Positions 4,481 to 57,801 of a stretch of DNA of 64,000 bases are shown piece after piece (within the stretch, counting starts at the first letter, position 1; each line of letters starts with the position of its first letter). The notes beneath the pieces were generated by a model that saw only the letters and a program-made list of their open reading frames with translations, made no database searches and was not told where the DNA came from. The position numbers and the translations under genes were made by a program. The DNA lies in the NCBI GenBank assembly GCA_964555245.1, contig CAZKRI010000042.1:2567-66566 (forward strand). Direction: 5' to 3'. This DNA is from an uncultured Myxococcales bacterium (GTDB lineage: Bacteria > Desulfobacterota > Binatia > UBA1149 > SPBQ01).

Positions 4481-5029
4481 GTGCCGGGCGGCGAGTCACG
4501 ACCAACACTGGGCAGTACGAGGCGAGCGCTGCTGCTGCGCGCGCCGTTCGTCGCGATGGCCGGCGCCATCGCGGCGAGCTACGGGACCCTGCTCGGCTTC
4601 ATGGCGCGGTTTCTCTTTCCAGCGCGCTCGCAGCCGGTAGCCTGGCTCTACGTGGAGCAGCTACGCAGGCTCGCGCCCGGTCAGACCGTCCTTTATAAGA
4701 CGCCCGCCGGTCACAGCGTGAACATCACGCGGCGCGGCGGCGGCGAGTCGGCCGACGACTTCGCGGCGCTCTCGAGCGTGTGCCCCCACCTGGGCTGCCA
4801 GGTTCACTGGGAGCCGCAGAACAACCGTTACTTCTGCCCCTGCCACAACGGCGTGTTCTCGCCCGATGGTGTGGCCACCGCCGGGCCGCCGGCGGAGGCG
4901 GGCCAGCGGCTCGCCTCGTACCCGCTCAAGGTGGAGAGCGGGGTTCTCTATATCGAGGCTCCGCTCGACGCGTTGCCGACCGGCGCGGTCGCGCACTCGC
5001 ACGCGAAGCGCGCCGCGGACGGGGTCTGA
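4481..5029 (+). CDS. Rieske [2Fe-2S] iron-sulfur subunit of a cytochrome bc/b6f-type complex
   Basis: GTG start preceded by GGGAGGGGG. Tat-like N-terminus (STRRALLLRAPFVAMAGA). Rieske boxes CPHLGC ... CPCHNG. Confidence 0.9.
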   Translation: MPGGESRPTLGSTRRALLLRAPFVAMAGAIAASYGTLLGFMARFLFPARSQPVAWLYVEQLRRLAPGQTVLYKTPAGHSVNITRRGGGESADDFAALSSVCPHLGCQVHWEPQNNRYFCPCHNGVFSPDGVATAGPPAEAGQRLASYPLKVESGVLYIEAPLDALPTGAVAHSHAKRAADGV

Positions 5030-5033
5030 GTCC

Positions 5034-6080: not shown

Positions 6081-6102
6081 CCGAGGGAGCACCGGCGGAT
6101 TC

Positions 6103-38223: not shown

Positions 38224-39132
38224 TCAGAACTGCACGATAGTGTCGAAGGTCAGTCGAAACTGCGTGATGTCTTCGCGATGAGAAACCGGAAACTCGCCGG
38301 CCGCCCCGAACATGAGGTATCGATTGAAACGATAGCGTGCTCCTCCGGCCATGGTTGCCACCGTGCCCGAGTTGGTGCTGCCGAAGTTGAACAGGTCCAT
38401 GCCTTCGAAGCTGCTGCCGAGCGCCCCGGAGTCGGTGCGCGTCCCGCTTGCGACCGTCGTCACGATGTTGCCCTCGAACACGCCGTACCAGTTGGGGAAC
38501 ACCTCGTGGTCGAGATGAAACGCATAGTGGAACAGCGTGCTGTCGTGGTCGCCATCGAGCGCGACGTCGAAGCCGGCGCTGGTCTGGAAGCCCGTGCGCC
38601 AGCCCACGTGGGTGCCGTAGGTCGCGAACATGTCGAACATGCCCGCGCCGCCGCCCTGGAACTCGAGCTGCGCGCTCGCGAGGTCGCCGGCGGGCGCTTC
38701 GTAGCGGGCGCCGACCGTGAAGAAGTTGGCGCGCTCGGGCTTGGCGATCAACGCGTACTTGACGCCGAAGGCGACGTTCAGCGCTCCGTCGGCGTCCGGC
38801 AGTAGCTCACTGAAGTGGAGGTTGGCGTAGCCGTTCTTCGTCACGATCAAACCGAGCCGCTCGTTGACCGCGTAACGCAACTGAACGGCGCCGATGTTCG
38901 CGTAGCCGCCATCTGTCACCGTGAAGTCGTCCGGGATCAAGTTGAACATGTAGATGGGCCGGATCTCTGTGGTGATGTACGGGCTCTCGTTGAAGAACGG
39001 GCTCGTGATCGCCGGTACAGGATGCGGCGCTGTCGCCTCAGGGCCGGCCGCCAACGCATCGAGCGGCATGAGAACGGACGCTGCCAGCACGCAAATCCGC
39101 GCGCGCACGGCTCGGCCACGACGGTGCATCAT
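38224..39132 (-). CDS. outer-membrane beta-barrel protein (MetA/phenol-degradation-like OMP family suspected)
   Basis: Start at MMHRRGRAV (39132). Signal peptide ending ALAAGP. Alternating amphipathic strands. C-terminal ...TFDTIVQF ending in Phe. Confidence 0.55.
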   Translation of the reverse strand: MMHRRGRAVRARICVLAASVLMPLDALAAGPEATAPHPVPAITSPFFNESPYITTEIRPIYMFNLIPDDFTVTDGGYANIGAVQLRYAVNERLGLIVTKNGYANLHFSELLPDADGALNVAFGVKYALIAKPERANFFTVGARYEAPAGDLASAQLEFQGGGAGMFDMFATYGTHVGWRTGFQTSAGFDVALDGDHDSTLFHYAFHLDHEVFPNWYGVFEGNIVTTVASGTRTDSGALGSSFEGMDLFNFGSTNSGTVATMAGGARYRFNRYLMFGAAGEFPVSHREDITQFRLTFDTIVQF

Positions 39133-39519
39133 CTCTTCTTCCCCTTGATCCCGCCTTTCGCGGGCCAACCACAACCTCTGCGTGCTGCCGTGGTGCCGGA
39201 TCGTAAGGCGACAGACGCGGGCGCAGGCGAGGCTATTCAAGCAGAGCTCGTGCCAAACCCGCTTGTGCCGATGCGACGCCGGATTCGACGTCGGTCGCTC
39301 GACGCTCGCGCAGCACTCGATGTGCGCGTACGACGTCATCGCGACGCCGTGACGATGCTGGCGTCGTCGCGCTGCATTTCGGCTGGCACGCCTGAACGCA
39401 TGCGGGCGGACACGAGCATCTTCGCGCGCCGTAGGCGTGGGCCGCTTGGCCCAGCCTTTGCTCCACGATGGCCAGTAAGGTTCGCGGACGCCGCTCGCAG
39501 GGGCGGTGCGGGAAAACCT

Positions 39520-42024: not shown

Positions 42025-42058
42025 GGCCGGACGCGACGAACGATGCCGAGGTGAAACG

Positions 42059-43369
42059 ATGGACGCGCTAGACCGACGAAGGTTTCTCAAACTGATGGGT
42101 GTGGCGGGGCTGACGGCGACGATACCGTGGCCGCTGAGGCTGGCACGGGCCCAACTCACCGCCGATCCGTACACGGGGCCATTGTTCGTCACGATCGCGG
42201 CCAGCGGCGGCTGGGACCCGACCAGCTTCTGCGACCCCAAGGAGAACGTGCCGGGCGAGCGCGAGATCAACCACTGGTCGCGCACGGCGCAGGCGCAGAC
42301 GTTCCCGCGCAGCCCGGTCACCTACGCCCCGTTCGCCAACAACCAGGCGTTCTTTGGCCGGTTTCATCGCTACATGCTCGTCGTCAACGGAGTCGATTCT
42401 CAGACCAACTCCCATGACACGGGCGTCCGGTTCAACTGGAGCGGTCGCGAGGCGCCTGGCTACCCGGCTTTTGCGGCGATCGCCGCCGCGGTCTACGGAC
42501 AGAACCTGCCGCTGCCGTATCTGACCAACAGCTCGTTCCGTGAGACCGCCGGGCTGGCGACGTACACGGAGGTCAACAGCACTCGCGCGCTCCAAGACTT
42601 GGTCGACGTCAACCGGGTTTCCGAGAGCGAGCGCCTCTACCATGACGAGGACGAGCGTGCGCTGATCGAGAGCTACCAGCAAGCGCGCGTGGCGCGGCAG
42701 ATGAGCCGCCCGGGGCTGCTCCCGCGCGAACGCGCGGCGCTCGACAACCTCGCGTTCGCGCGCGCCAGCCGTGACCAGCTCCGCGCACTGCTCGTCGACC
42801 TTCCCGACCAGCTCGTCAATCCCGTGGACCGCGACGGCAACAACAACGCCCTGCTCCAGCAGGCGCAGCTGGCGCTGATCTGTTTCAACGCGGGGCTGAC
42901 CGTCGCCTGCGATCTGGAGACCGGCGGCTTCGACACGCACGGCAACCACGACACCGAGCATCGCAGCTCGCTGCAACGTCTGACCAACGGCATCGAGTAC
43001 CTGTGGGATACGGCCGAGGCGATGGGCTTGGCCGATCGCCTGCACGTGCTCATCAGCTCGGATTTTGGGCGCACCCCTTACTACAACGACGGCAACGGCA
43101 AGGATCACTGGCCAGTCGGCAGCGCGATCCTCATGAAGAAGAACGCGCCCTGGGGCGACCGCGTGGTGGGGCGTACCGACGAGGGACACAACGTCATCCC
43201 CATCGACCCCAACACGCTGGCGGCGCGGCCGGGCGTGGGCGGGGTGGTGTTGGGACCGGGACACGTGCACGAAGCGTTCCGGCGGATGGCCGGACTGGAC
43301 CGGCACCCGACGGCGTTGCGCTACCCGCTCAACGTCCCACCGGTAGATTTCTTCGGCACTGCCGTCTGA
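42059..43369 (+). CDS. DUF1501-family protein (sulfatase-like fold) with a Tat signal
   Basis: 436 aa. Twin-arginine signal MDALDRRRFLKLMGVAGLTATIPWPL. Confidence 0.7.
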   Translation: MDALDRRRFLKLMGVAGLTATIPWPLRLARAQLTADPYTGPLFVTIAASGGWDPTSFCDPKENVPGEREINHWSRTAQAQTFPRSPVTYAPFANNQAFFGRFHRYMLVVNGVDSQTNSHDTGVRFNWSGREAPGYPAFAAIAAAVYGQNLPLPYLTNSSFRETAGLATYTEVNSTRALQDLVDVNRVSESERLYHDEDERALIESYQQARVARQMSRPGLLPRERAALDNLAFARASRDQLRALLVDLPDQLVNPVDRDGNNNALLQQAQLALICFNAGLTVACDLETGGFDTHGNHDTEHRSSLQRLTNGIEYLWDTAEAMGLADRLHVLISSDFGRTPYYNDGNGKDHWPVGSAILMKKNAPWGDRVVGRTDEGHNVIPIDPNTLAARPGVGGVVLGPGHVHEAFRRMAGLDRHPTALRYPLNVPPVDFFGTAV

Positions 43370-43451: not shown

Positions 43452-46226
43452 GTGCCGATTCTCCGACCCGAGTCGCTGCTGGCGCTGGTCGTAGCGATTC
43501 CGTTCGTTCTGGCCGCAGCCGCGCTCCTGATCGGGAGCGGGGCGGGCGGACGCGCGGGCTGGCTGATGGTGGCGGCGGCAGCCGCCTCATTCCTGGGGTG
43601 CATCACGCTGGTGCCGGCCGCTTGGGAGGGGGCGTCGGTCGTGCTGGCCGCGCAGTGGATGCCCGCGATCGGCGTGACGTTCGCGCTGCGCGCGGATGCG
43701 TTCGGGCTGATGTTCGCGCTGCTCATCTCGGGCATCGGCACCCTGATCGGCGTCTACTCGATGAGCTACATGCCCGCCGTCTGCGCGCCGGCGCGACTGG
43801 TTCGTTACTACGCCGCCTTGCTCGCGTTCATGGGCGCGATGCTCGGAGTCGCTCTGGCCGATGACTTGATCCTGCTGTTCGTGTTCTGGGAGATCACGAG
43901 CCTCACCTCGTTCCTGCTGATCGGCTTCTGGGACGAGCACGAGGAGGCGCGCAACGGCGCCATGACCGCGCTGCAGATCACCGCGCTGGGTGGCATGGTG
44001 ATGATGGCCGGCATCGTCTTGGTCGGGATCACCTGTGGTACATTCAGTTTGCGCGCACTGGCACAGGATCCGGCCGTGCGCGACACGCTGGCCGCCTCGC
44101 CGGCCTTCGCTCCTGCCCTGCTGCTGCTGCTGGCCGGAGCGCTGACCAAGTCGGCGCAGTGGCCGTTCCATTTTTGGCTGCCGGGCGCGATGGTCGCTCC
44201 CACGCCGATCTCGACCTACCTGCACGCTGCGACGATGGTGCAGGCGGGCGTGTTCCTGATGGGTCGCTTGTTACCCATCTTCTCGGCTTCGCCCCTGTGG
44301 TTCGCCATCCTGGTGCCGCTCGGTCTGGGCACCTTTCTGACAGGGGCGATCGGGGCGCTGCGGGTCAGCGATCTCAAGGCGATGCTCGCGCGTACCACGG
44401 TGGCTTCACTCGGCCTGTTTACGTTCGGCTACGGAGTCGGCGCCAATGCTCAGGACGCCCTGCAGATCCTCTCGCACGCCGCCTACAAGGGTGCGCTCTT
44501 CCTGGTCGCCGGCATCATTGAGCACGCAACCCACACCCGCGACCTCCGGCGCTTGGGCGGTCTGCGGGCGCGCATGCCGATCACGTTCGCGATTTGTGTG
44601 GTCGCGGCAAGCGCGATGGCCGGGATCTGGCCGTCGCTGGGGTTTCACGCCAAGGAGCTCACCTACCACGGGCTCCTTCAGCTGTACGCCGTCGAACCGT
44701 TGTTGCGCTGGACGATGCTCGCACTGGTAGTCGCCGGGAATGCGTGCCTGGTGGCGGTCGCACTCACCTTGGTGGTGAAACCGTTTTTTGGTCCGCTCGG
44801 TGCCGAAGCCGCGCATGCTCACGAGGCCGGCCCCGGGTTGTGGCTGCCGCCGGCGGTTCTGGCCGCGGCGACTTTGGCCTTCGGCGCGATGCCGGAGGTT
44901 ACCGGACGGATGGTCTCGGCGTTCTCTTCGCGACCGGGTGCCGCCGTGCATCTCTCGCTAGCAGCGTCGGGCCCCGAGCTGCTTCTCACGTTGCTCACCA
45001 CCACTGCGGGCGTGGGCTTGTTCCTGCTGCGCAAGGCGATTGCGGCTCCTGCGCCGTCGCGTCTAACGATGCAGCGGCTGTGGGATGGGGCGATCGAGGC
45101 TACCACACGCGCGGCCACCGCGTTCAGCGGCCGATGGCAAAATGGCTCGGTCCATTGGTACTTCTCCGGCACGCTGGTCTTCACCGTCGGGCTTGCCGCC
45201 TACGCCTTGGCGCACCACGGCATCTCGCCGCGCATGGTGAGCATCGACCTGCACGAACTGCAGTGGTACGGGGCGAGCCTGTGCATGATGCTCGCGGTTT
45301 CGGCGGTGATGGTGGTGCGGTTCAACACGCGCGTGGCCGCTGCAATCGCGCTCACCACCAACGGCTTCCTCACCGCGCTCCTGTTCGTCGTCTATCGCTC
45401 GCCCGACATTCTGCTCACGCAGATCCTCATCGAGACGGTTTCGACGATCTTCATTCTGCTGATCTTCTACTTCATGCCGGCCTTCAAGCCCGAGAAGACG
45501 CCGGCGATCCGACGCACGGCCAATCTGACGATCTCGGTGGCGGTAGGGGCGGCGATGTTCGCGTTCGTGATGCTCAGTACCAGCCCGCAGTTTCGCGAGA
45601 CCAACAACCTCGGCCTCGAGTATCTGAGCCGTTCGCTCGCGGATGCCGGCGGCGCCAACGCGGTCAACGTCATCATCGTCGACTTCCGCGCGATCGACAC
45701 CAACGGTGAGATCACCGTCCTCATGATGGTGGCCTTGGTCGTCTTCGGTCTGCTGCGTGCGCGGCGGGCGGGACCGCGACCAGCGGTTTCGCCGCCGGAT
45801 CCCGTGGTGGTCCACGGCGACAGCCCGATCTTGCGCACGGCCGCCCGTTTCGCAGTTCCGCTGACCGCGTGGGTTTCGATCGTGATCTTCATGCAGGGGC
45901 ACAACCTGCCGGGCGGCGGCTTCATCGCCGGCGTGATGGGAGCGGCTGCCGGGGCCATGACCATGCTCGCCTTCGGGCTCGGTGCGGCGGTGCGGGTGCC
46001 GTGGTGGAAAGTGTCGGTGCTCGGGCTGCTGGCTTCGGTCGGCACTGGGATGGTGCCGTTCGTGCTCGGGCGCTCCTACATGGATCACGAGATCTTGCAC
46101 TTTCATCTTCCCATGATCGGACTCTACGAGCTGCCCACGGCGACGTTCTTCGACCTCGGCGTCTACATGATCGTGCTCGGCACGATCATGACGATGTTCG
46201 TCGAGCTGGGACAGGAGGGCAGCTAG
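43452..46226 (+). CDS. mrpA: Na+/H+ antiporter subunit A (with fused B domain)
   Basis: 924 aa, polytopic. NuoL/MrpA-like proton-pumping module, with the extra C-terminal MrpB-like domain typical of MrpA. Confidence 0.85.
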   Translation: MPILRPESLLALVVAIPFVLAAAALLIGSGAGGRAGWLMVAAAAASFLGCITLVPAAWEGASVVLAAQWMPAIGVTFALRADAFGLMFALLISGIGTLIGVYSMSYMPAVCAPARLVRYYAALLAFMGAMLGVALADDLILLFVFWEITSLTSFLLIGFWDEHEEARNGAMTALQITALGGMVMMAGIVLVGITCGTFSLRALAQDPAVRDTLAASPAFAPALLLLLAGALTKSAQWPFHFWLPGAMVAPTPISTYLHAATMVQAGVFLMGRLLPIFSASPLWFAILVPLGLGTFLTGAIGALRVSDLKAMLARTTVASLGLFTFGYGVGANAQDALQILSHAAYKGALFLVAGIIEHATHTRDLRRLGGLRARMPITFAICVVAASAMAGIWPSLGFHAKELTYHGLLQLYAVEPLLRWTMLALVVAGNACLVAVALTLVVKPFFGPLGAEAAHAHEAGPGLWLPPAVLAAATLAFGAMPEVTGRMVSAFSSRPGAAVHLSLAASGPELLLTLLTTTAGVGLFLLRKAIAAPAPSRLTMQRLWDGAIEATTRAATAFSGRWQNGSVHWYFSGTLVFTVGLAAYALAHHGISPRMVSIDLHELQWYGASLCMMLAVSAVMVVRFNTRVAAAIALTTNGFLTALLFVVYRSPDILLTQILIETVSTIFILLIFYFMPAFKPEKTPAIRRTANLTISVAVGAAMFAFVMLSTSPQFRETNNLGLEYLSRSLADAGGANAVNVIIVDFRAIDTNGEITVLMMVALVVFGLLRARRAGPRPAVSPPDPVVVHGDSPILRTAARFAVPLTAWVSIVIFMQGHNLPGGGFIAGVMGAAAGAMTMLAFGLGAAVRVPWWKVSVLGLLASVGTGMVPFVLGRSYMDHEILHFHLPMIGLYELPTATFFDLGVYMIVLGTIMTMFVELGQEGS

Positions 46227-46237
46227 TGGAGCTGCCG

Positions 46238-46585
46238 ATGGCCTTGGCGATCGCCGTGCTGTTCGCGGCCGGTACCTATCAGATCCTGCGGCCCAACTTG
46301 ATCCGGCTGGTCATGGGTTTCGGACTCTACTCGAACGCGACCAACCTCCTGCTCATCACCGTCGGCGGGTACACCCGCGCAGCCGGTGCGCCGTTCGTCG
46401 GGCAGGATCCGCGCTCGGCTGCCGGCCTCATGGACCCGCTGCCGCCCGACATCATCCTGACCGCGATCGTGATCAGCTTTGCCGTCAGCGCGCTGCTGCT
46501 GACGGTCTGTTACCGCGTCTATGCCGATCACGGCACCGATGATCCCCACCAGTTGCCCGTCGACGACGAGGCCGAGCCCGGATGA
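46238..46585 (+). CDS. mrpC: Na+/H+ antiporter subunit C (NuoK-like)
   Basis: ATG at 46238 (alternatively the GTG at 46226 that overlaps the mrpA stop). 115 aa, three TM helices: MALAIAVLFAAGTYQILRPNLIRLVMGFGLYSNATNLLLITVG. Confidence 0.75.
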   Translation: MALAIAVLFAAGTYQILRPNLIRLVMGFGLYSNATNLLLITVGGYTRAAGAPFVGQDPRSAAGLMDPLPPDIILTAIVISFAVSALLLTVCYRVYADHGTDDPHQLPVDDEAEPG

Positions 46586-48117
46586 ACAGCCTGATCGTTC
46601 CGTTGCTCGTGCCGTTCGTGGCCGCCCTGGTGCTAGCGCTCCTCAACGGCTGGTCGCGCCTGGAGCGAGCCATTGCCGTGCTTGCCACCGTCGGGCTCAC
46701 GGCGTGGGCGTTCTGGCTGCTCTGGCTGGTGGACACTCACGGCATCCAGGCCACCGTCATCGGCGGCTGGCGGGCGCCATGGGGCGTGGCGTTCGTGGCC
46801 GACCGGCTCTCGGCGATCATGCTCTGCCTGTCGATGACCGTCGGCTCGGTGGTTACGGTCTACACGCTGTGGACCGTGACCGAACAGCAGCAGCGCTATT
46901 TCTTCTACCCGCTCATGCAGCTCACGTTGCTGGGGGTCAACTGGTCGTTCATGACCGGCGACGTTTTCAATCTGTTCGTGGCCTACGAGGTCATGTTGAT
47001 GGCCTCCTACGGCATGATGATGGTGGGGGCCAGCAAGGCGCAGGTACGCCAGACCTTCATGTACATCGGCATCAACGCGATCGGCTCCACCTTGTTCGTC
47101 GTTGCCTGCGGCGTGATCTACGCGACCACCGGAACGCTCAACATGGCCGATCTTGCCGTTCGGACCGAAGCTCTGGTGGGTGCGCGCGCGGCGATGGTCA
47201 CCGCCGGATCGATGCTGTTGCTGGTCGTCTTCTTGCTCAAGTCGGCGACGTTCCCGCTCATCTATTGGCTGCCCGACTCCTACCCGGTGGTGCCGGCGGG
47301 CGTCAACGGGTACTTCGCGGGCCTGCTGACCAAGGTGGGCGTCTATTCGCTCTTGCGCGTGTTCGTCATGCTGTTCCGCCAGGAGGGCGCCGACTTCGCG
47401 CTCGACGTGATCCTGTTGCTCTCGGGCTTCACGATGCTGCTGGGCGTGTTGGGTGCGATGTGTCAGTGGGAGATCCGCCGCATTCTGTCGTGGCACATCA
47501 TCAGCCAGGTCGGCTACATGGTGATGGGGATAGGCTTGGCCGGCAGCGCCGACCCGCGAGTCGTCGATCTCGCGATCGCCGGTACGATCTTCTACGTCGT
47601 GCACCACATCGTCGTGAAGTCGTGTCTATTTCTGGTCGGCGGAATCGCCGAACGCGTGAGCGGCTCCCAATCTCTCGAGAAGATGGGCGGCGTGTTGACG
47701 ATCGCGCCGGGCGTGGCAGGCCTGTTCCTGGTCGCTGCGCTCTCGCTCGCCGGCATGCCGCCGTTCTCCGGATTCTTGAGCAAGCTGGTGCTGCTGCGGG
47801 CCGGCTTGACCGGCGGCAACGTCGTCGTCGTGGCCGTTTCCATCGCGACGAGCTTCCTCACGCTCTACTCGATGACGAAGATCTGGACGCACGCGTTCTG
47901 GGGTGAGCCGCGCCGCGAGCGTGCCGTCGCGCGCTACCGGCCGCTGATGGCGCCGACCGCCGTGCTGGTGGTCTTTACGATCGTCATGGGCGTCTGGGGT
48001 CAGCCGTTCCTGGCGCTGGCGGCGCGCGCAGCCGGCTCGTTGAGCGATCCGCGCGAGTACATCGCGGCGGTCATGCAAGCCCACGTCGAGCACGCGGACG
48101 CGAGGTTGCCGCAATGA
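46582..48117 (+). CDS. mrpD: Na+/H+ antiporter subunit D (NuoM/N-like)
   Basis: 511 aa. Complex-I antiporter-like subunit. 4-bp overlaps with both neighbours. Confidence 0.85.
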   Translation: MNSLIVPLLVPFVAALVLALLNGWSRLERAIAVLATVGLTAWAFWLLWLVDTHGIQATVIGGWRAPWGVAFVADRLSAIMLCLSMTVGSVVTVYTLWTVTEQQQRYFFYPLMQLTLLGVNWSFMTGDVFNLFVAYEVMLMASYGMMMVGASKAQVRQTFMYIGINAIGSTLFVVACGVIYATTGTLNMADLAVRTEALVGARAAMVTAGSMLLLVVFLLKSATFPLIYWLPDSYPVVPAGVNGYFAGLLTKVGVYSLLRVFVMLFRQEGADFALDVILLLSGFTMLLGVLGAMCQWEIRRILSWHIISQVGYMVMGIGLAGSADPRVVDLAIAGTIFYVVHHIVVKSCLFLVGGIAERVSGSQSLEKMGGVLTIAPGVAGLFLVAALSLAGMPPFSGFLSKLVLLRAGLTGGNVVVVAVSIATSFLTLYSMTKIWTHAFWGEPRRERAVARYRPLMAPTAVLVVFTIVMGVWGQPFLALAARAAGSLSDPREYIAAVMQAHVEHADARLPQ

Positions 48118-48461
48118 GCCTATCCACGCTTTTGCGCCGTGCTTTCTACGCGGCCGTTTTCGTCGTGCGGTTCTTGAAGGAGCTCGCGCTGGCCAACTAT
48201 CAAGTCGTCAAGCTCGTGCTGGCGCCGCAGCTACCGATCAGGCCGGGCTTCGTGTCGATCCCGCTCGAGGCGCGCACGGACTTCGAGATCACCAGCTTCG
48301 CCAACGCGATCACGCTGACGCCGGGCACGATCTCGGTGCACATTCCCGACGAGCGCGACGCGATCGTCATCCATGCCATCGACGTTGGGCCCGACCTCGA
48401 CGGTTTGCGCAACTCGGTCAAGCAGTCGCTGGAGGCTCCGATTCTGCGCTTCATGCGCTAG
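48114..48461 (+). CDS. mrpE: Na+/H+ antiporter subunit E
   Basis: 115 aa. MnhE-like (N-terminal TM, then a soluble domain). Confidence 0.7.
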   Translation: MSLSTLLRRAFYAAVFVVRFLKELALANYQVVKLVLAPQLPIRPGFVSIPLEARTDFEITSFANAITLTPGTISVHIPDERDAIVIHAIDVGPDLDGLRNSVKQSLEAPILRFMR

Positions 48462-48472
48462 GAGGACCGCGC

Positions 48473-48748
48473 ATGAGCCCATTTCTCACGGCCGTGACCA
48501 TGTCGTGCCTGGCCGCGCTTCTCGCGAGCGGTGCGCTCGCCATGGTCCGCCTGGCGATCGGCCCGGACACGCCCGACCGCGCCGTGGCCTTCGATGCGCT
48601 GTCGATGGTGTTCGTCGGCATCGTCTGCACGCTGTGCATCCTGTGGCACTCCACGCTGTACTTCGACGCGGTCTGGATTCTCACGCTGGTCGGTTTCCTG
48701 GGAACGGCGGCGATCGGCCGCTATCTCGAGCGCGGGAGGCTCTTTTGA
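48473..48748 (+). CDS. mrpF: Na+/H+ antiporter subunit F
   Basis: 91 aa. Three TM helices. MnhF-like. Confidence 0.7.
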   Translation: MSPFLTAVTMSCLAALLASGALAMVRLAIGPDTPDRAVAFDALSMVFVGIVCTLCILWHSTLYFDAVWILTLVGFLGTAAIGRYLERGRLF

Positions 48749-49119
48749 TGCCTGCGCTCCTCGAGATCGCGATTGCCGTGCCGATGGTGCTCGGTACCTT
48801 CCTCATCGTCGTCACCGGGCTCGGTCTGCTGCGCCTGCCGGATGTCTTCTGCCGCATGCATGCGGCCGGTAAGGCCGGCACCATGGGTATGGGACTGCTC
48901 ACCCTGGCGACGGTGATTGCGTTCGCGGGCGGAGACCACAACGTCACCGTTCGCGGCCTACTCGCAATCGTCTTCCAGTTCATCACTTCACCGACCGCGA
49001 CCCACATCCTCGCGCGCGCATGCTACGTCGGAGGCTACCCGCTCTCGGCTCGCACTGCCGTCGATGAACTGCGTGCCTTCCTGCCCTCGCGCCCGGACAC
49101 CACGGTCAGCCGAGACTGA
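48748..49119 (+). CDS. mrpG: Na+/H+ antiporter subunit G
   Basis: ATG overlaps the mrpF stop (TGATG). 123 aa. MnhG-like (VPMVLGTFLIVVTGLGLLRLPDVFCRMHAAGKAGTMG). Confidence 0.75.
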   Translation: MPALLEIAIAVPMVLGTFLIVVTGLGLLRLPDVFCRMHAAGKAGTMGMGLLTLATVIAFAGGDHNVTVRGLLAIVFQFITSPTATHILARACYVGGYPLSARTAVDELRAFLPSRPDTTVSRD

Positions 49120-49347
49120 CCCCGCCTGCCCGGAGCGGAGCGATTCCCGCTTCTGACAACGGCCGCCACCGTCGTTGTCAGGTCTGGGAAAACAAAGTGG
49201 CACGAGCCCCGCTGCGTGACTGATGGGGGAGGGCTGCGCAAGGGCCTCTGCTGGTACGTTACGTGCTAGGTCTTACCCGCACTCGAACGAGGACCGACGT
49301 TCGGGTGTCGCGTCGTCACCATCGGCAGCCAAGACAAGGAGAGGCCG

Positions 49348-50988
49348 GTGCCAGGTCTGTCGCCGCTCGTGCTGATCATCTGTCTGGGCTTGTCGGCCGG
49401 CCTCACGGGTTGCCGAACCGACGGCGAGCGGACGGAAGCTCCGCCATCTCCATCCTCCGCATCACCGTCACAGCCGAACGAGAACGCCAAGGTAGCCGGA
49501 GACCCGCTCGTCCGTGGCGCCGCGATTTTCGAGCGCCAGTGCGTGGCGTGCCACGGCGCCAGCGGCCACGGCGACGGTGAAGCGGCCTACCTTCTCTATC
49601 CCAAGCCGCGAGACTTCCGCGGCGGCGTCTTCCGTTACACGTCGACCTGGGAAGGAACACCGACCGACGAAGATCTCTATCGAACGATCTCACGGGGAAT
49701 GCCGGGATCCGCGATGCCTTCGTGGGCCCATCTGTCCGAGAGCGACCGCCGGGCGCTAGTCGCGTTCGTCAAATCTCTGTCCGGGAAGCCGCTCGAGCTG
49801 AAGCCTGCCAAGGCGCCCGATCCCGAGTACGGCGAGCCCGGCGAGGGGCCGGTCCAGCTCGCCCCCGAGCCAGCCGATGACGCCGCCAGCCGGGCGCGCG
49901 GCGCCGAGCTGTTCGCGCAGAGCTGCGGCTCGTGCCACGGCGAGCGTGGCCAAGGCGACGGCATTCTCGTCGACAGTCTGCGCGACGCGAGCGATTATCC
50001 CATTCGCCCGCGCGATCTGACCACCGGCGTCTTCAAGGGCCCGGCCGAGCCGGAGGATCTCTACCGGCGCATTCTTGCGGGCATTCCGGACACCCCGATG
50101 CCGGCCAACCCTTACCTGGCAGGCGCCGATGCCTGGCACATCGTCCACTTCGTGCGTTCGCTCTCGAGCGACCTGTTGCGCGAGCGTGCCGAGATGAAAC
50201 GGTTTCGCGTCGAGGCGGTGCGTGTCGACGTGCTGCCGGACCATCCCGACTCTGGCAGGTGGAACGAGATCCCGGGCGTCGACCTGCACATGATGCCGCT
50301 GTGGTGGCGCTACAACCGCCCGGACTACGTCACCGTGCAGGCGGCTCACGACGGCGAGTCGATCGCCCTGCTGCTGGTGTGGGCCGACGACACCAACGAC
50401 GTCATGGTGGTGCGTCCGCAGGACTATCGCGACGCGGCGGCCGTGCAGTTCTCTCTCGATCCGGATCCTCCGTTCTTCGCGATGGGCGAGAAGGGCCGCT
50501 TCGTCAACATCTGGATGTGGAAGTCGGAACGTCAGGCCGATCTGGCCAGTTTCGGTGACGTCGACGAGCAGTATCCGAATGCCGGAATCGACTCGTATCC
50601 CAACCTGCGTGCCTCTCCCTACGAGCAGCCGATGCGCCACGCGCTGACGCTGCAGTCCGACCCCACGTTCGTCACTGGCTGGGGCGCGGGCAACATCGTC
50701 TCCGATCCCACCCGGCGCAGCGCCGCCGAGGACCTGAGCGCGCAGGGCTTCGGGACCCTGCGTGCGCGGCCGCCCATCGATCAGACGGTCGAAGCGCACG
50801 GTGTCTACGGAACCGGCTCCTATCGGGTGATGCTCGAGCGTTCGCTCGACGGCAACGGAGAGCACGCCATCGATCTGCGACCCGGAAGCTCGGTGGCCGT
50901 CGGTTTCGCGGTCTGGAACGGCGCCGCTGGCGACCGCGATGGCAAGAAATCGGTGACGATCTGGCAAGACCTCGTGCTGGCTCGATAG
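49348..50988 (+). CDS. lipoprotein-anchored gamma subunit of a type II DMSO-reductase-family enzyme: diheme cytochrome c fused to an EB_dh/NxrC-like heme-b domain
   Basis: 546 aa. Lipobox LSAGLTGC. Two class-I cytochrome c domains (CVACHG...M, CGSCHG...M). A C-terminal ~300-aa region resembling ethylbenzene-dehydrogenase gamma / NxrC / DdhC heme-b subunits. Confidence 0.6.
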   Translation: MPGLSPLVLIICLGLSAGLTGCRTDGERTEAPPSPSSASPSQPNENAKVAGDPLVRGAAIFERQCVACHGASGHGDGEAAYLLYPKPRDFRGGVFRYTSTWEGTPTDEDLYRTISRGMPGSAMPSWAHLSESDRRALVAFVKSLSGKPLELKPAKAPDPEYGEPGEGPVQLAPEPADDAASRARGAELFAQSCGSCHGERGQGDGILVDSLRDASDYPIRPRDLTTGVFKGPAEPEDLYRRILAGIPDTPMPANPYLAGADAWHIVHFVRSLSSDLLRERAEMKRFRVEAVRVDVLPDHPDSGRWNEIPGVDLHMMPLWWRYNRPDYVTVQAAHDGESIALLLVWADDTNDVMVVRPQDYRDAAAVQFSLDPDPPFFAMGEKGRFVNIWMWKSERQADLASFGDVDEQYPNAGIDSYPNLRASPYEQPMRHALTLQSDPTFVTGWGAGNIVSDPTRRSAAEDLSAQGFGTLRARPPIDQTVEAHGVYGTGSYRVMLERSLDGNGEHAIDLRPGSSVAVGFAVWNGAAGDRDGKKSVTIWQDLVLAR

Positions 50989-51003: not shown

Positions 51004-54000
51004 ATGAAGCAGACTCGGAGCGACTTCCTTTTCATCTCCCGCCGCGAATTCTTGCGTTGGCTTGGCATGGGCGCCGGCATCAGCATGACAGGTCTGTCGC
51101 TGCCGTTGCGCGCGCTGGCTGCGGCTGACCCGGACCAGAATCCCTTGGCCGGGAGCGTGAGCCGCGACTGGGAGAAGATCTACCGCGACCAGTACCGCTA
51201 CGACAGCACGTTCGACTGGGTCTGCTCGCCCAACGATACGCATGCCTGCCGGGTGCGCGCCTACGTTCGTAACGGCATCGTCACCCGTCTCGGCTCGACC
51301 TACGACTACCAGACCTACGCTGACACCTACGGCAACCACGCGACTGCGAACTGGAACCCACGGCAGTGTGCGAAAGGCTTTACGTTCCATCGCGTGCTCT
51401 ACGGGCCTTATCGGTTGCGCCACCCCATCGTGCGCAAAGGCTGGAAGGCTTGGGCCGACGCGGGGTTTCCCGAGCTGACTCCCGAGCTGCGCGATCGCTA
51501 CCTCTTCACCCGGCGCGGCGACGACGAGTTCGTGCAGATCTCCTGGGACGACGCCTCTCGCGCCATTGCTCGCTGTCTCGTGACCATCGCCGAGCGCTAC
51601 AGCGGCGAGGCGGGCAAGCAGCGGCTCCTCGCGCAGGGCTACCAGCCCGAGATGGTCGCCGCCACCGAGGGCGCCGGCACGCGCTGCTGCAAATTCCGCG
51701 GCGGGATGGGATTGCTCGGCGTCATCGGCAAGTACGGAATGTACCGGCTCTCCAACTCGCTGGCGCTCTTGGACAGCAAGGTCCGCGGCGTTGAGCACGA
51801 GCAAGCGCGCGGCGGGCGCAACTGGTCCAACTACACCTGGCACGGCGATCAAGCCCCCGGCCATCCCTGGGTGCATGGGTTGCAGGCCTCCGACTGCGAC
51901 TTCAACGACCTGCGCAGCTCGAAGCTCATCGTGATGGACGGCAAGAATATGGTCGAGAACAAGCTCACCGACTCTCACTGGTTCATCGAATGCATGGAGC
52001 GCGGCGCCAAGATCGTGGTCATCGCGCCGGAGTACGGGCCGCCCTCGACCAAAGCGGACTACTGGATTCCCATCCGGCCGCAGACCGACGCGGCGCTTTT
52101 CCTCGGCGTCACCCGCGTGATGATGGATCGCGGTTGGTACGACGCGGACTTCGTCAAGGCGTTCACCGACTTTCCTCTGCTGGTCCGCAAGGACACGTTG
52201 AAACGGTTGCGCGCGCACGAGCTGTTCGCCGGCTACGCGAGCGCGCTCGCGCCCGACGGTCCCTCGATGCGGATCCAAGGGCTCAAGCCCGAGCAGCACG
52301 CCAAGCTCGGCGACTACGTGGTCTGGGACGCCACGAGCGGCGGTCCCAAGGCGATCAACCGCGATCAGATCGGCGCCCGCATGCGCCAGTCCGGTATCGA
52401 TCCCGCGCTCGACGGCGAGTACACGGTGACCCTGGCCGACGGCAAGCGGGTGGAGGTCGCCACGCTCTGGCGCCTCTATCAGGTTCATCTGCGCGACTAC
52501 GATCTCGACAGCGTCGCCGACATCACCCGCGCGCCGCGGGATCTCATCGAACGGCTGGCCGAGGACATCGCCACCATGAAGCCGGTGGCGATCCACCAAG
52601 GCGAAGGGATCAACCACTGGTTCCATGCCACCGAGATGAACCGCGCCGTCTACCTGCCGCTCATGCTCACCGGCAACATCGGCAAGCCCGGCGCCGGGTC
52701 CCACACCTGGGCGGGCAACTACAAGGCGGCGCTGTTCCAGGGCTCGCCGTGGAGCGGACCGGGCTTCAAGGGTTGGGTCGCGGAGGACCCGTTCGCGCCC
52801 AACCTCGACAGCGCACTCGACGGCAAAGACGTCCAGGCCCACGCCTATACCAAGGACGAGGAACCGGCCTACTGGAACCACGGGGACAAGGCCCTGATCG
52901 TCGACACTCCGAAGTACGGGCGCAAGATCTTCACCGGCACGAGTCACATGCCGACGCCGACCAAGTCGATCGTTTTCAACAACGTCAATCTCATCAACAA
53001 CGCCAAGTGGGCGTACGAGATGATCAAGAACGTCAATCCGATGGTCGAGATGATCGTCTCAGTCGACATCCAGATGACGGCCTCGATCGAATACGCCGAC
53101 GTGGCGCTGCCGGCCAACAGTTGGCTCGAGTTCGAGGGGCTCGAGATCACCGCGAGCTGCTCGAATCCGTTCCTGCAGATCTGGCGCGGCGGCATCCCGC
53201 CGGTGTTCGACAGCAAGGACGACATCGACATCATCGCCGGGATCGCCAGCGCGCTCGCGGAGGAGACCGACGAGACGCGCTTCCGCGACTACTTCGCGTT
53301 CGCTGCTGCGGACAAGCGCCACGTTTACATCCAGCGCTTGCTCGATAGCTGCACCACCACGCGCGGCTACAAACTCGACGACATCATGGCCGGGAAGTTC
53401 GGCCCCCCCGGCGGCGCGTTGATGCTGTTCCGGACCTATCCGCGCATCCCGTTCTACGAGCAGGTCCACTACGACGAGCCGTTCTTCACCGACACAGGGC
53501 GTCTCCATGCATACGCAGACGTGAACGAAGCGATCGAGTACGGTGAGAACTTTGTGGTGCATCGCGAGGGGCCCGAAGCCACGCCGTATCTGCCCAACGT
53601 CATCGTCAGCTCGAATCCGTTCGTGCGGCCAGAAGACTACGGCATTCCGGCCGACGCCGAGCACTGGGACGAGCGCACGGTGCGCAACGTCAAGCTGCCG
53701 TGGACGAAGGTCAAGAACACCAAGAACTTCCTGTGGGAAAAGGGATTCCAGTTCTACTGCTTGACGCCCAAGACCCGGCATCGCGTTCACAGCAGCTGGT
53801 CGAACGTCGACTGGCACATGGTCTACGACTCGAACTTCGGTGATCCCTACCGGCTCGACAAACGCGCCCCCTGCGTGGGCGAGCACCAGCTCAGCATGAA
53901 TCCACAGGCCGCTCGCGATCTCGGCATCAACGACGGGGACTACGTCTACGTCGACGCCAATCCGGCCGATCGGCCGTACATCGGCGCGACGCCGACCGAC

Positions 54001-54474
54001 CCGTTCTACCGCGTCTCGCGCTGCATGCTGAGGGTCAAGTACACCCACGCCTACCCGTACAACATCGTGATGATGAAGCACGCGCCGTTCATTGCCACCG
54101 AGAAGAGCGTGCGCGCGCACGAAACGCGTCCGGACGGGCGCGCTCTGTCGGAGAACACCGGCTACCAGGCCAACGTGCGCTACGGCTCGCAACAGTCGGT
54201 TACGCGCAACTGGCACATGCCGATGCACCAGACCGACACGCTGTTCCACAAGGCCAAGGTGTTCATGGGCTTCATTTTCGGCGGTGAGGCCGACAACCAC
54301 GCGGTGAACACCGTGCCGAAGGAGACGCTCGTGCGCGTGGCCAAGGCCGAGGACGGCGGGCTCGGCGGCGTCGGCATCTGGAAGCCGGCCACGACCGGCT
54401 ACTCGCCCGACAACGAGAACGAGTTCATGGAGCGGTACCTGCGCGGCGAGCTGGTGACCGTGCGGAAGGCCTAA
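51004..54474 (+). CDS. Tat-exported molybdopterin oxidoreductase alpha subunit of the NarG/NxrA (type II DMSO reductase) family; candidate periplasmic nitrite oxidoreductase/nitrate reductase
   Basis: 1156 aa. Twin-arginine signal SRREFLRWLGMGAGISMTGLSLPLRALAAA. N-terminal Cys/His cluster (H..C...C type) for FS0. The length matches NarG/NxrA rather than the ~900-1000 aa of Ebd/Pcr/Ser/Clr/Ddh alpha subunits. Confidence 0.75.
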   Translation: MKQTRSDFLFISRREFLRWLGMGAGISMTGLSLPLRALAAADPDQNPLAGSVSRDWEKIYRDQYRYDSTFDWVCSPNDTHACRVRAYVRNGIVTRLGSTYDYQTYADTYGNHATANWNPRQCAKGFTFHRVLYGPYRLRHPIVRKGWKAWADAGFPELTPELRDRYLFTRRGDDEFVQISWDDASRAIARCLVTIAERYSGEAGKQRLLAQGYQPEMVAATEGAGTRCCKFRGGMGLLGVIGKYGMYRLSNSLALLDSKVRGVEHEQARGGRNWSNYTWHGDQAPGHPWVHGLQASDCDFNDLRSSKLIVMDGKNMVENKLTDSHWFIECMERGAKIVVIAPEYGPPSTKADYWIPIRPQTDAALFLGVTRVMMDRGWYDADFVKAFTDFPLLVRKDTLKRLRAHELFAGYASALAPDGPSMRIQGLKPEQHAKLGDYVVWDATSGGPKAINRDQIGARMRQSGIDPALDGEYTVTLADGKRVEVATLWRLYQVHLRDYDLDSVADITRAPRDLIERLAEDIATMKPVAIHQGEGINHWFHATEMNRAVYLPLMLTGNIGKPGAGSHTWAGNYKAALFQGSPWSGPGFKGWVAEDPFAPNLDSALDGKDVQAHAYTKDEEPAYWNHGDKALIVDTPKYGRKIFTGTSHMPTPTKSIVFNNVNLINNAKWAYEMIKNVNPMVEMIVSVDIQMTASIEYADVALPANSWLEFEGLEITASCSNPFLQIWRGGIPPVFDSKDDIDIIAGIASALAEETDETRFRDYFAFAAADKRHVYIQRLLDSCTTTRGYKLDDIMAGKFGPPGGALMLFRTYPRIPFYEQVHYDEPFFTDTGRLHAYADVNEAIEYGENFVVHREGPEATPYLPNVIVSSNPFVRPEDYGIPADAEHWDERTVRNVKLPWTKVKNTKNFLWEKGFQFYCLTPKTRHRVHSSWSNVDWHMVYDSNFGDPYRLDKRAPCVGEHQLSMNPQAARDLGINDGDYVYVDANPADRPYIGATPTDPFYRVSRCMLRVKYTHAYPYNIVMMKHAPFIATEKSVRAHETRPDGRALSENTGYQANVRYGSQQSVTRNWHMPMHQTDTLFHKAKVFMGFIFGGEADNHAVNTVPKETLVRVAKAEDGGLGGVGIWKPATTGYSPDNENEFMERYLRGELVTVRKA

Positions 54475-54491: not shown

Positions 54492-54832
54492 ATGCCCTAC
54501 GACGAAGCGCAACCCGACGATCCGACGATGCTCGTCGGCGTCTCGGTGCCGGGGGATGAGGACTCGGTGCGCGAGATGGCCTACGCGTTCGCCGAGGAAT
54601 TCGCCGGCATGGGGTTCAGTCGCGAGCGAATTCTGGGCCTGTTCGACTCACCACACTACGGCGGCGCCCACGGCGCGCGGCTCCGGCTCGGCGAAGCGGA
54701 GATCGGGCGGATCGTCGACGAGAGCCTCAACGTCTTTGGCGCGGTCCGCTACGTCGTGCGGGATCAACCGGCGCCGCAGCGCTTCACGATTGACGCGGAG
54801 AGCGGATACGTCGTGACGGTCCGCGACAAGGG

Positions 54833-54836
<4 letters not shown>
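54492..54836 (+). CDS. small hypothetical protein encoded between the alpha and beta subunit genes
   Basis: 114 aa. Tight spacing: 18 bp after the alpha stop, 4-bp overlap with the beta start. No recognised motif. Confidence 0.5.
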
Positions 54837-56104
<1,268 letters not shown>

Positions 56105-56113
56105 GAGAATGCC

Positions 56114-56842
56114 TTGACCGAAACCGCTAGCAACCAGGCGCTTGCTCGTAGCACGGTGTACGCGGCGCTCGCGCTCGCATTGCTCCCTCCCGAGGATGAA
56201 GGGGACGCGAGCGCCGGCGTTTCGGCGACGCGGTCGCTGGTCAAGCTGTTCGAGACCTGCGGTGCGCCGGATCTTGCCGAACAGGCGCGAGGGCTGGGTG
56301 GCACGGCGCCGTCCACTGCTCGCTATCAGGAGCTGTTCGGGCACGCAGCAACGGCCACCGTCGTGTCCTACGAAACCCAGTACGGGACCGATACGCTCTT
56401 TCGGCAGCCGCACGAGCTAGCCGACATCGGCGCGTTCTTCGCGGCGTTCGGCCTCAAGTTGAACCCGGTCCAGCACGAACGCGCCGACCACATCTCCTGC
56501 GAGTGCGAGCTGATGGCGTTTCTCAGTGCCAAAGGGGCGCACGCCTTGGATCACGGTGACGAGTCGATGCTCGCGATTACGCGCAAGGCCGAGTCCTCGT
56601 TTCTCCACGATCACCTCGGGCGGTTCGCGCCCGCTCTGGGCGAGCGCCTGCACCGCCACGATGCCGGAGGATTCTACGGTAGAATCGGACGGTTGCTGCG
56701 CGGCTTCGTCGAATGGGACTGCGCGCGGCTGGGTGTGGAGGCCGGTCCATCCAGCCTGGAGCTTCGTCGGGCAGCCGAGGATGACGGGGCGCCAATGGCG
56801 TGCGGATCGCAAAGCGGCTGCTCCCTCGGCCGTTGCGAGTGA
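56114..56842 (+). CDS. TorD/NarJ/EbdD-like redox-enzyme maturation chaperone
   Basis: 242 aa, helical. TorD-family-like sequence. Lies directly downstream of the beta subunit. Confidence 0.6.
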   Translation: MTETASNQALARSTVYAALALALLPPEDEGDASAGVSATRSLVKLFETCGAPDLAEQARGLGGTAPSTARYQELFGHAATATVVSYETQYGTDTLFRQPHELADIGAFFAAFGLKLNPVQHERADHISCECELMAFLSAKGAHALDHGDESMLAITRKAESSFLHDHLGRFAPALGERLHRHDAGGFYGRIGRLLRGFVEWDCARLGVEAGPSSLELRRAAEDDGAPMACGSQSGCSLGRCE

Positions 56843-57801
56843 TGCGCGTTCAGATCGATCAAGACCTCATCGAAGAATCGGTCCATGCGGCGATGATCGG
56901 ACACTCCGAGACCGAGGCGTTCCATCGCCAGCGGGAGTCTTGCTATGAGGCGCCGCCGGAAGAGCGGGATGCCCGGTTTGCCGGGTGCTTTCGGGGTTGG
57001 TTCGAGCGCCTTCATCTGGCTCGGCCCATCGACGCCGCGCTAGGGGAGCAACCGACCATCGCCGAGCGAGTCGCGCAGGTAAGGATCTCGGCCGCGCGGC
57101 GGAGCAAGGAGCAGGGAGTCGAGCTGTTCGTTGCGCCACCAGAACTAGGCGCTCCCGATCCGGAATCACGCATGCTGCACATCCGGGTTCTAGCCGCCGT
57201 GTTGGCCGACTCGGATGCCACGCTCGCCGTGCTCCGGCCTGAGCTGCTCCACGTCGCGGACATGCTCGACCCGGGTTTCGGCTACCGGCCACATCTGCCG
57301 GCCGCGCAGAGCGGGCCCACCCACGATCGCATGCTGCTCGACCGTTACTCGGCGCTCTGGGCCGCGAGCGTCATCGGTCGTTTGGTGCGCGCGGAGGTGA
57401 TGGCCCAGCCGCATCGCCAGCGGGCGCTGGCAAGGCTCGCCCGTACGTTCCCGATGCACGCCGAGCGGGCGGAGGAAGTCTTCGGCTTCCTTCTCGATGG
57501 CGCGCGGCCGACCCATGACGAGATCGTCGCGCTCGCGATGAGTCCTCGCTCGCTCGGGGACGAAGCCGAGGGACGAGATCGGTCGCATCGCTGCAGTCTG
57601 TGCGGCTGTCCGACGACTCGCTTCGAGCCGGCGGACCGGCTGCTCGACATCGTCGAGATCATTCGCACGTACACGCCAGCGTGGACCGTCGACGATGCCG
57701 TGTGTCCGCAGTGCGCGGACCTCTGCCGGGCGCGGGTGAGAGCGGTCTCAGCTCCAGTCGAGGTCAGCGAGCTTCGCGCACGGTATCACGCTCCCCGTTG
57801 A
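56842..57801 (+). CDS. hypothetical protein with a C-terminal 4-Cys zinc-ribbon-like motif, last gene of the NXR-like cluster
   Basis: ATG overlaps the chaperone stop (TGATG). 319 aa. C-terminus ...HRCSLCGC...CPQCADLC. No family recognised. Confidence 0.5.
   Translation: MRVQIDQDLIEESVHAAMIGHSETEAFHRQRESCYEAPPEERDARFAGCFRGWFERLHLARPIDAALGEQPTIAERVAQVRISAARRSKEQGVELFVAPPELGAPDPESRMLHIRVLAAVLADSDATLAVLRPELLHVADMLDPGFGYRPHLPAAQSGPTHDRMLLDRYSALWAASVIGRLVRAEVMAQPHRQRALARLARTFPMHAERAEEVFGFLLDGARPTHDEIVALAMSPRSLGDEAEGRDRSHRCSLCGCPTTRFEPADRLLDIVEIIRTYTPAWTVDDAVCPQCADLCRARVRAVSAPVEVSELRARYHAPR

Follow-up and report, generated by a model that had tools for sequence, protein, structure and literature searches.

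A dihaem cytochrome c fused to an EB_dh-type haem-b domain: the probable gamma subunit of a periplasmic NXR-type molybdoenzyme from an uncultured bacterium

The structurally characterised gamma subunits of type II dimethyl sulfoxide (DMSO) reductases, EbdC of the ethylbenzene dehydrogenase of Aromatoleum aromaticum and NXR-C of Kuenenia stuttgartiensis, are all monohaem b proteins. In a stretch of 64,000 nt from an uncultured Myxococcales bacterium (contig CAZKRI010000042.1, positions 2,567 to 66,566; hereafter the window), an open reading frame (ORF) of 546 aa combines a domain of this kind with two cytochrome c domains. Which enzyme does such a protein serve, and where would its electrons go? 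Our analysis suggests that the ORF (49348-50988, + strand; referred to as gamma) very probably encodes the gamma subunit, i.e. the electron-exit or -entry subunit, of a periplasmic molybdoenzyme of the nitrite oxidoreductase (NXR) type. The design of gamma is real and probably functional.

Domain composition and haem ligands of gamma

Two cytochrome c domains of class I (c4/CcoP-like) lie in the N-terminal half of gamma, where Pfam detects them with scores beyond the gathering threshold (PF00034, E 2.4e-22; PF13442, E 5.5e-21). Domain 1 comprises residues 52-146 (49501-49785, +) and carries the motif CVACH (C65/C68/H69, 49540-49554, +). Domain 2, delimited by Pfam and by the alignment to the chain 6h5l_B, comprises residues 175-273 (49870-50166, +) and carries the motif CGSCH (C193/C196/H197, 49924-49938, +). 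The putative axial ligands Met123 (49714-49716, +) and Met251 (50098-50100, +) are found ~55 residues after the respective CXXCH in a G/T-x-MP context. A Pro/Glu/Ala-rich linker, conserved only in part, separates the two domains (residues 147-174, 49786-49869, +). In a sequence search of the PDB, residues 56-273 match the dihaem cytochrome Kustc0457 (6h5l_B) over its whole chain with E 1.6e-38, whereby both CXXCH motifs and both Met align.

The remaining residues 274-546 (50167-50985, +) form an EB_dh/NxrC-type haem-b domain according to PF09459, PDB matches and Foldseek. Residues 326-535 reach 96.1 bits with PF09459 (cut-off 33.3, E 4.4e-27), and residues 329-545 match NXR-C (7b04_C, E 1e-28) and EbdC (2ivf_C, E 2.6e-11). 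M379 (50482-50484, +) and K534 (50947-50949, +) align with Met108/Lys201 of EbdC and Met155/Lys305 of Kuenenia NxrC, which are the haem-b ligands of these proteins (PMC8387239). By alignment they are the predicted haem-b axial ligands of gamma. The original prediction, made from the sequence of the window, had proposed just this order of two CXXCH-plus-Met class-I domains followed by an EbdC-gamma/NxrC-like domain. Two outcomes that would have spoken against it, a missing EB_dh match and a lack of conserved haem-b ligands in the C-terminal half, were checked, and both checks came out in its favour. The prediction agrees with the above apart from the length of the last domain, which is ~270 aa and not ~300 aa, a trivial difference.

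Conservation was evaluated in 120 close homologues (59% identity or more) and in 126 full-length distant representatives of 50%-identity clusters (33-46% identity). All ten haem positions (eight for haem c, two for haem b) are unchanged in each of the 120 close homologues and kept in at least 120 of the 126 distant ones, with the haem-b Met present in 120 and the Lys in 121. They are also invariant in a 29-sequence alignment.

The fold was predicted from the alignment using AlphaFold2, with a mean predicted local distance difference test score (pLDDT) of 74.8 and a predicted template modelling score (pTM) of 0.75. Both cytochrome domains (pLDDT 80-90 for domain 1, >90 for domain 2) and the beta-sandwich core of the haem-b domain are modelled with confidence, while the N-terminal 40 residues are ill-defined. 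A Foldseek search of the PDB with this model returns NXR-C first (7b04_C, E 6e-18, ~29% identity in the shared domain), Kustc0457 second (6h5l_B, E 3e-16, target TM score 0.83, ~34% identity) and EbdC third (2ivf_C, E 8e-13, target TM score 0.75).

Translation starts with the GTG at 49348 and ends with the stop codon at 50986-50988. A Shine-Dalgarno-like AAGGAG, read from the sequence, lies 5 nt before the GTG (49337-49342, +). The closest homologue (P0001, 84% identity) begins with a Val equivalent to this GTG, and there is no in-frame start codon upstream of it.

The operon and the enzyme it encodes

Gamma is the first gene of a tightly packed operon of six genes in the order gamma-alpha-orf114-beta-delta-orf333, all on the + strand, with 15 nt between the gamma stop and the alpha start. 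Alpha (51004-54474, 1156 aa) is an NxrA-type molybdopterin protein with the twin-arginine translocation (Tat) signal SRREFLRWLG. It matches Kuenenia NXR-A (7b04_B) end to end (residues 11-1153) with 1738 bits; next in the PDB come perchlorate reductase (E 3e-58), EbdA (E 4e-47) and NarG (~E 1e-30). Beta (54833-56104, 423 aa) is an NxrB-type Fe-S protein (Fer4_11; TIGR03478, E 9e-74) that reaches 591 bits against Kuenenia NXR-B (7b04_A). Delta (56114-56842, 242 aa) belongs to the TorD/NarJ-type assembly chaperones (TIGR03482, E 9e-20; PF02613, E 7e-13).

C74, N77, D78 and D282 of alpha correspond to Cys67, Asn70, Asp71 and Asp275 of NXR-A from Kuenenia (KsNXR-A). In the latter, Asp275 is the Mo ligand, Asn70 faces the substrate, and Asp71 and Cys67 account for the unusual coordination of the Fe-S cluster FS0 (PMC8387239). 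Judged by sequence, the enzyme is of the NXR type, more precisely of the periplasmic kind known from Nitrospira, Nitrospina and anammox bacteria, with alpha and beta very close to Kuenenia NxrAB. The original prediction had assigned gamma to a periplasmic molybdoenzyme, in line with the alpha, beta and delta genes of the operon and the Tat motif of alpha, and had left that enzyme unnamed.

The two remaining genes, orf114 (54492-54836, 114 aa), a conserved small ORF between alpha and beta, and orf333 (56800-57801, 333 aa), have no match in Pfam, NCBIfam or the PDB. Orf333 is Cys-rich, lacks a signal peptide and ends with a CxxCxC...CxxC motif (CSLCGC...CPQC), which is possibly a zinc finger. 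A membrane-integral, quinol-binding or second gamma subunit is not encoded in the operon. Scans for promoters and terminators in the region upstream of gamma and at the operon end did not find any.

Comparison with known systems

Each half of gamma has a separate counterpart of known structure. The C-terminal domain resembles NXR-C (Kustd1704, PDB 7B04 chain C) in sequence, fold and Met/Lys ligation. NXR-C likewise partners with very similar NxrA and NxrB subunits and is Sec-exported without a transmembrane anchor. It differs by being a monohaem b protein of ~320 aa that has neither cytochrome c domains nor a lipobox, whereas gamma has the dihaem cytochrome c at its N-terminus; moreover, the identity in the shared domain is apparently far below the likeness of the alpha subunits. 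EbdC (2IVF chain C) shares the EB_dh fold and the two ligands with gamma and is also the soluble periplasmic gamma subunit of a Tat-exported alpha-beta complex, but it lacks c haems, serves another catalytic subunit and substrate and is ~20% identical. SerC, ClrC and DdhC are grouped with EbdC as further monohaem-b gamma subunits of type II enzymes. The enzymes of all four use separate soluble cytochromes c as partners. Kustc0457 (6H5L chain B) in turn resembles the N-terminal half of gamma, but is a free-standing subunit of the Kuenenia octahaem hydroxylamine oxidoreductase-like reductase complex, which is not a molybdoenzyme, and has no EB_dh domain.

A combination of both haem types is known from the alternative NxrC proteins (alt_NxrC), the alternative gammas of Nitrospira, Nitrospina and anammox bacteria. 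In Nitrospina gracilis, alternative gammas have one to three cytochrome c sites, and some copies have a DMSO-reductase-like haem-b domain (PMC3578206). Alt_NxrC_2 of Nitrospira moscoviensis (NITMOv2_3640) is listed as a dihaem cytochrome c of 66.8 kDa that has a signal peptide and a single transmembrane helix (PMC6606698). Such proteins have been proposed to relay electrons from NXR to acceptors of the c type (PMC3578206, PMC6606698). By these published descriptions, on which the comparison was based instead of sequence, alt_NxrC resembles gamma in uniting c-type haem sites and a DMSO-reductase-like haem-b domain in one polypeptide. There are two differences. In N. moscoviensis the proteins end with a transmembrane helix, and part of the Nitrospina copies are integral to the membrane, whereas such a helix is found neither in gamma, which ends with ...SVTIWQDLVLAR and no hydrophobic segment, nor in the 120 close homologues. 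In addition, the N. moscoviensis proteins are encoded away from nxrAB in a cluster of a bd-like oxidase and cytochromes, whereas gamma is the only one in its nxrAB operon. A search for alt_NxrC-like relatives with a C-terminal helix among the 150 nearest representatives of 50%-identity clusters yielded only two, P0162 and P0255, and gave no proof of orthology to the Nitrospira alt_NxrC.

Related NXR-like clusters have been described in metagenome-assembled genomes (MAGs) of Planctomycetota and Verrucomicrobiota, i.e. of uncultured organisms, where an NxrA with Tat signal clusters with those of Nitrospira, Nitrospina and anammox bacteria and the co-localised nxrC encodes a protein with a signal peptide for Sec but without a transmembrane helix (Poghosyan et al., 10.1101/2020.05.19.103440). 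The parts of that paper drawn on here do not mention c-type haem domains in NxrC. In the literature searched, which mostly did not extend to subscription journals, we found no explicit account of a cytochrome-c-fused NxrC inside an nxrAB operon, the nearest being the alt_NxrC reports and the above preprint.

Distribution of the fused gamma and its locus

Among the candidates scored, 1728 clusters at 90% identity match gamma at E<=1e-5, and the best 120 of them all have the same three-domain architecture with lengths of 490-585 aa. A full scan of the 50%-identity cluster representatives with gamma yields 854 matches at E<=1e-30; the top 150 are mostly full-length, with two CXXCH motifs and 480-590 aa. 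At least 222 GTDB species representatives, all of them MAGs, encode the fused gamma. Closed MAGs with the cassette include OZ252293.1 (Vicinamibacterales) and OZ252100.1 (Latescibacterota). The labels of the 222 include Methylomirabilota/Rokubacteria, Binatia, Acidobacteriota, Gemmatimonadota, Planctomycetota, Myxococcota/'Deltaproteobacteria', Latescibacterota, Krumholzibacteriia and Verrucomicrobiia, among others. Database annotation of the fused proteins is generic ('c-type cytochrome', 'ethylbenzene dehydrogenase-related protein').

The operon proteins of the window were compared by tblastn to 80 retrieved loci. Alpha directly follows gamma in 77 of the 80, and the contigs of the other three end too early. 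The full order gamma-alpha-orf114-beta-delta-orf333 is present in all 31 loci that reach far enough. Orf333 thus follows delta in each of these, and orf114 lies between alpha and beta in loci extending well past alpha. Identities across the loci are 70-85% for alpha, 71-83% for beta and 55-70% for gamma. More remote relatives, P0270 (45% identity, Planctomycetota) and P0153 (39%), show the same cassette layout. The genes flanking the cassette differ from locus to locus. This agrees with a cassette that is self-contained and probably horizontally mobile.

The original prediction had considered the architecture of gamma uncommon for this enzyme family. This does not hold given its occurrence in so many species and clusters and the earlier description of c-haem plus haem-b alternative NxrC proteins. 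The architecture is neither rare nor conceptually new; it is a modestly new variant of a known gamma subunit.

A related but unfused arrangement was observed on another contig (L090:839-5754). Here the gene directly upstream of that for a 1216-aa NarG-type molybdopterin subunit encodes a cytochrome of 421 aa, which has three CXXCH motifs and a C-terminal transmembrane helix but lacks an EB_dh domain. This cytochrome shares 52% identity with the dihaem module of gamma, and the pairing resembles that of gamma and alpha with an unfused, membrane-anchored cytochrome. The dihaem module is therefore repeatedly linked with Nar/Nxr-type enzymes, fused or not.

Alternative readings of gamma and its enzyme

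Three observations fit less well with a haem-b gamma subunit of an NXR. The best NCBIfam match of gamma, TIGR03477 (DMSO_red_II_gam), stays at 121.6 bits and does not reach its curated cut-off of 169.85; NCBIfam resolves alpha, beta and gamma no further than the generic type II subfamily, as they stay under the equivalog cut-offs; and AlphaFold2 confidence is low in loops 396-450 of the haem-b domain. The last point, together with the appearance of CBM9-type carbohydrate-binding modules in the Foldseek search, would suit a C-terminal domain that is a haem-free binding or scaffold module of the CBM9/DOMON type, gamma being merely a dihaem cytochrome. The CBM9 modules however appear only at E ~1e-5, far behind the haem-b subunits that are the best matches in sequence as well as in fold, and the Met and Lys of EbdC and KsNXR-C are invariant in the close homologues and conserved to at least 95% in the distant ones. 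We regard a haem-free domain as extremely improbable. The generic NCBIfam placement leaves room for an enzyme acting on another substrate such as chlorate, perchlorate, selenate or a hydrocarbon. Against this stand the wide gap between the match of alpha to Kuenenia NXR-A and those to perchlorate reductase and EbdA, and the NXR-specific motif of the Asp-ligated FS0 (CSPND) together with identical active-site Asn and Asp. A different substrate is consequently improbable.

It is also conceivable that gamma does not belong to this enzyme but is an independent carrier of the alternative NxrC type, part of a separate membrane complex comparable to the one proposed for the bd-like oxidase cluster in Nitrospira and Nitrospina. 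The alt_NxrC proteins do unite c-type haem sites with a haem-b domain, and the stoichiometry of their transcripts spoke against a role in the core NXR (PMC3578206, PMC6606698). But the C-terminal helix is absent from gamma and its close relatives and is seen in only 2 of the 150 most similar representatives, and the window contains no bd-like oxidase gene. Gamma is moreover the sole EB_dh protein of its operon, immediately before alpha, and this linkage is retained across many phyla. An independent carrier is thus quite improbable, even more so than another substrate, and we favour gamma as the subunit of the NXR-type enzyme encoded next to it.

Signal peptide and putative lipid anchor

Residues 1-22 of gamma are a signal peptide with a lipobox (MPGLSPLVLIICLGLSAGLTG/C22, 49348-49413, +). 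The lipobox L19-T20-G21-C22 follows the hydrophobic stretch LVLIICLGLSAG and fits the consensus [LVI][ASTVI][GAS]C with the Cys within positions 15-35. The closest homologue P0001 retains L-A-G-C at the same place. Residues 23-51 (49414-49500, +) form a Pro/Ser/Ala-rich flexible tether of low complexity that is not conserved in the alignment, and the pLDDT is below 50 for residues 11-37; ~30 disordered residues of this composition after the Cys are seen in many lipoprotein tethers. Lipobox-bearing homologues tend towards longer linkers.

Several points argue against an anchor. The n-region MPGLSPL has no Lys or Arg, and a lipobox-like Cys is present in only 33 of the 120 close homologues, while the other 87 (~70%) have ordinary signal peptides. 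The +2 residue is Arg instead of Asp. The inner-membrane retention signal of the E. coli type is hence absent, and the position does not point to a particular membrane for the protein, if any holds it. Cleavage by signal peptidase I would give a soluble periplasmic NXR complex; alternatively an uncleaved N-terminal helix would serve as anchor. In favour of this are the uncharged n-region, the ordinary signal peptides of most close homologues and the predicted solubility of related NXR-like clusters (10.1101/2020.05.19.103440). Yet the lipobox of gamma agrees with the consensus, is retained in P0001 and precedes a disordered tether typical of lipoproteins, and the longer linkers of lipobox-bearing homologues point in the same direction. 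We consider lipid anchoring of gamma the somewhat likelier outcome; a protein not anchored by lipid is less probable, though a serious candidate. The tethering put forward in the original prediction is therefore plausible for gamma and P0001 and does not extend to the family: by the distribution of the lipobox, the predicted anchor is specific to some lineages and clearly not family-wide.

Proposed assembly, electron path and direction

The following scheme was derived from type II DMSO reductase enzymes and NXR (PMC8387239). Gamma would be exported unfolded via Sec, as required for covalent attachment of haem c, probably be lipid-modified at Cys22 and hang from a membrane by its disordered tether of ~30 residues. 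It would take up two covalent haems c and one haem b. NxrA and NxrB would receive their cofactors in the cytoplasm with the help of the TorD-like delta and be exported together via Tat. The EB_dh/NxrC domain, holding haem b by Met379 and Lys534, would then dock on NxrB next to the cluster FS4. Electrons could pass from the Mo bis(molybdopterin guanine dinucleotide) cofactor with its Asp282 ligand through FS0-FS4 to haem b and on to the two His/Met c haems, or the reverse way. The c haems could exchange electrons with an external high-potential carrier, i.e. a cytochrome c, a cupredoxin, a haem-copper oxidase or a bc complex. In effect the fusion would build in the dihaem cytochrome partner that is a separate protein in other systems.

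Exchange with c-type carriers is a reasonable expectation since the conserved cassette has no membrane or quinol subunit. The trihaem b/c gamma subunit wired to c-type carriers, as the original prediction envisaged it, is consistent with the dihaem c module and the conserved haem-b ligands. The Met/Lys and His/Met ligation suggests high potentials, which would suit the nitrite/nitrate couple at +420 mV. For Kuenenia NXR it was stated that electrons 'cannot travel further' than the Met/Lys haem b, which lies behind a surface cleft, so that a yet unidentified partner is needed (PMC8387239). By analogy, the fusion may supply such a haem-b partner inside the same polypeptide.

As to direction, either nitrite oxidation or nitrate reduction is compatible with the cassette. 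In periplasmic reductases of chlorate, selenate and perchlorate, cytochrome c delivers the electrons. Two points tell against taking oxidation for granted. Kuenenia NXR is reversible in vitro (PMC8387239), and flanking genes such as Rrf2 and NnrS are more typical of N-oxide reduction.

Genes of this kind were seen around several relatives. Rrf2-family regulators (possibly NsrR-like) or NnrS/DUF1858 flank some close and distant cassettes (L084:164-649, L089:18615-19067, L086:15185-15704), and on the P0094 contig the gene before gamma is one for hemerythrin. Such neighbours are a hint that regulation may respond to nitrite or NO in some lineages. As evidence on direction, the flanking genes (Rrf2, NnrS, hemerythrin, MobB/FmdE) were discarded as they are too variable between relatives.

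The window also encodes a Rieske/cytochrome b complex with a multihaem c subunit (4481-7677, +). Its genes are those of the Rieske protein (4481-5029), of the cytochrome b (4866-6080) and of a multihaem cytochrome c of 524 aa (6103-7677). This complex lies ~42 kb away from the NXR operon. It could link the c haems of the NXR to the quinol pool.

Implications

NXR is the source of nearly all nitrate in nature, and the electron route after haem b is missing even for the solved Kuenenia enzyme (PMC8387239). The fusion of NxrC with a dihaem cytochrome offers a concrete and testable candidate for it. The main value of gamma is hence that of a natural fusion which predicts the missing electron partner of NxrC, and that of a marker for a very widespread NXR-like cassette. 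The cassette occurs in hundreds of uncultured species from soil, aquifer and sediment, which metagenomic surveys, routinely counting such genes, score as 'nxr-positive'. Wiring to high-potential c-type carriers and not to quinones would narrow the options to oxidase-coupled nitrite oxidation or bc-fed nitrate reduction. The system is also simpler and self-contained for biochemistry, as it has three redox subunits and possibly a lipid tether but lacks a membrane subunit.

A more far-reaching proposal takes the fusion as a 'Rosetta stone'. A dihaem class-I cytochrome c of the Kustc0457 kind would then be the physiological partner, long sought, of the NxrC haem b in NXR generally, and at the same time the six-gene cassette in its at least 222 species would mark a large, unrecognised guild of facultative nitrite oxidisers outside the canonical ones. 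Members of such a guild would feed electrons from nitrite directly into cytochrome c and terminal oxidases. Taken as a whole we deem this joint proposal speculative and rather unlikely.

Neighbouring genes in the window

Directly upstream of gamma lies a complete operon for an Mrp-type cation/H+ antiporter (43452-49119, +), consisting of a 924-aa MrpA/B fusion followed by MrpC, D, E, F and G. On the contig of the closest relative (L087) this operon is absent and a DUF1501 gene directly precedes gamma. The adjacency of Mrp and gamma is thus not conserved and looks like an insertion/deletion difference. We rejected the idea that the antiporter and the NXR operon are functionally linked, as the closest relative does without Mrp at this position.

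The gap of 228 nt before gamma contains an imperfect inverted repeat of 18 nt (TTCCCGCTTCTGACAACG / CGTTGTCAGGTCTGGGAA) with a spacer of 11 nt just after the mrpG stop (49144-49190). It has no T-run, and the corresponding region of L087, where Mrp is missing, does not contain it. The repeat may be a terminator or stabilising hairpin of the Mrp operon.

Further upstream (38815-43369, +) lies the gene of a 1069-aa protein that has a dockerin-like domain and matches PSCyt3 weakly, below the threshold. A DUF1501 protein comes next, and the pair resembles the Planctomycete type. The same DUF1501 gene is found upstream of gamma in L087, there preceded by an 826-aa ORF without Pfam match. Downstream of the NXR operon, the window contains a gene for glycyl-tRNA synthetase (62024-63424, -) that is at most 90% identical to any database entry, the best match being on a metagenome contig, and that gives an ambiguous taxonomic placement. 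Its best named matches are from MAGs labelled Dadabacteria (80%), Deltaproteobacteria (76%), Limnocylindrales (75%) and Binatia (72-75%).

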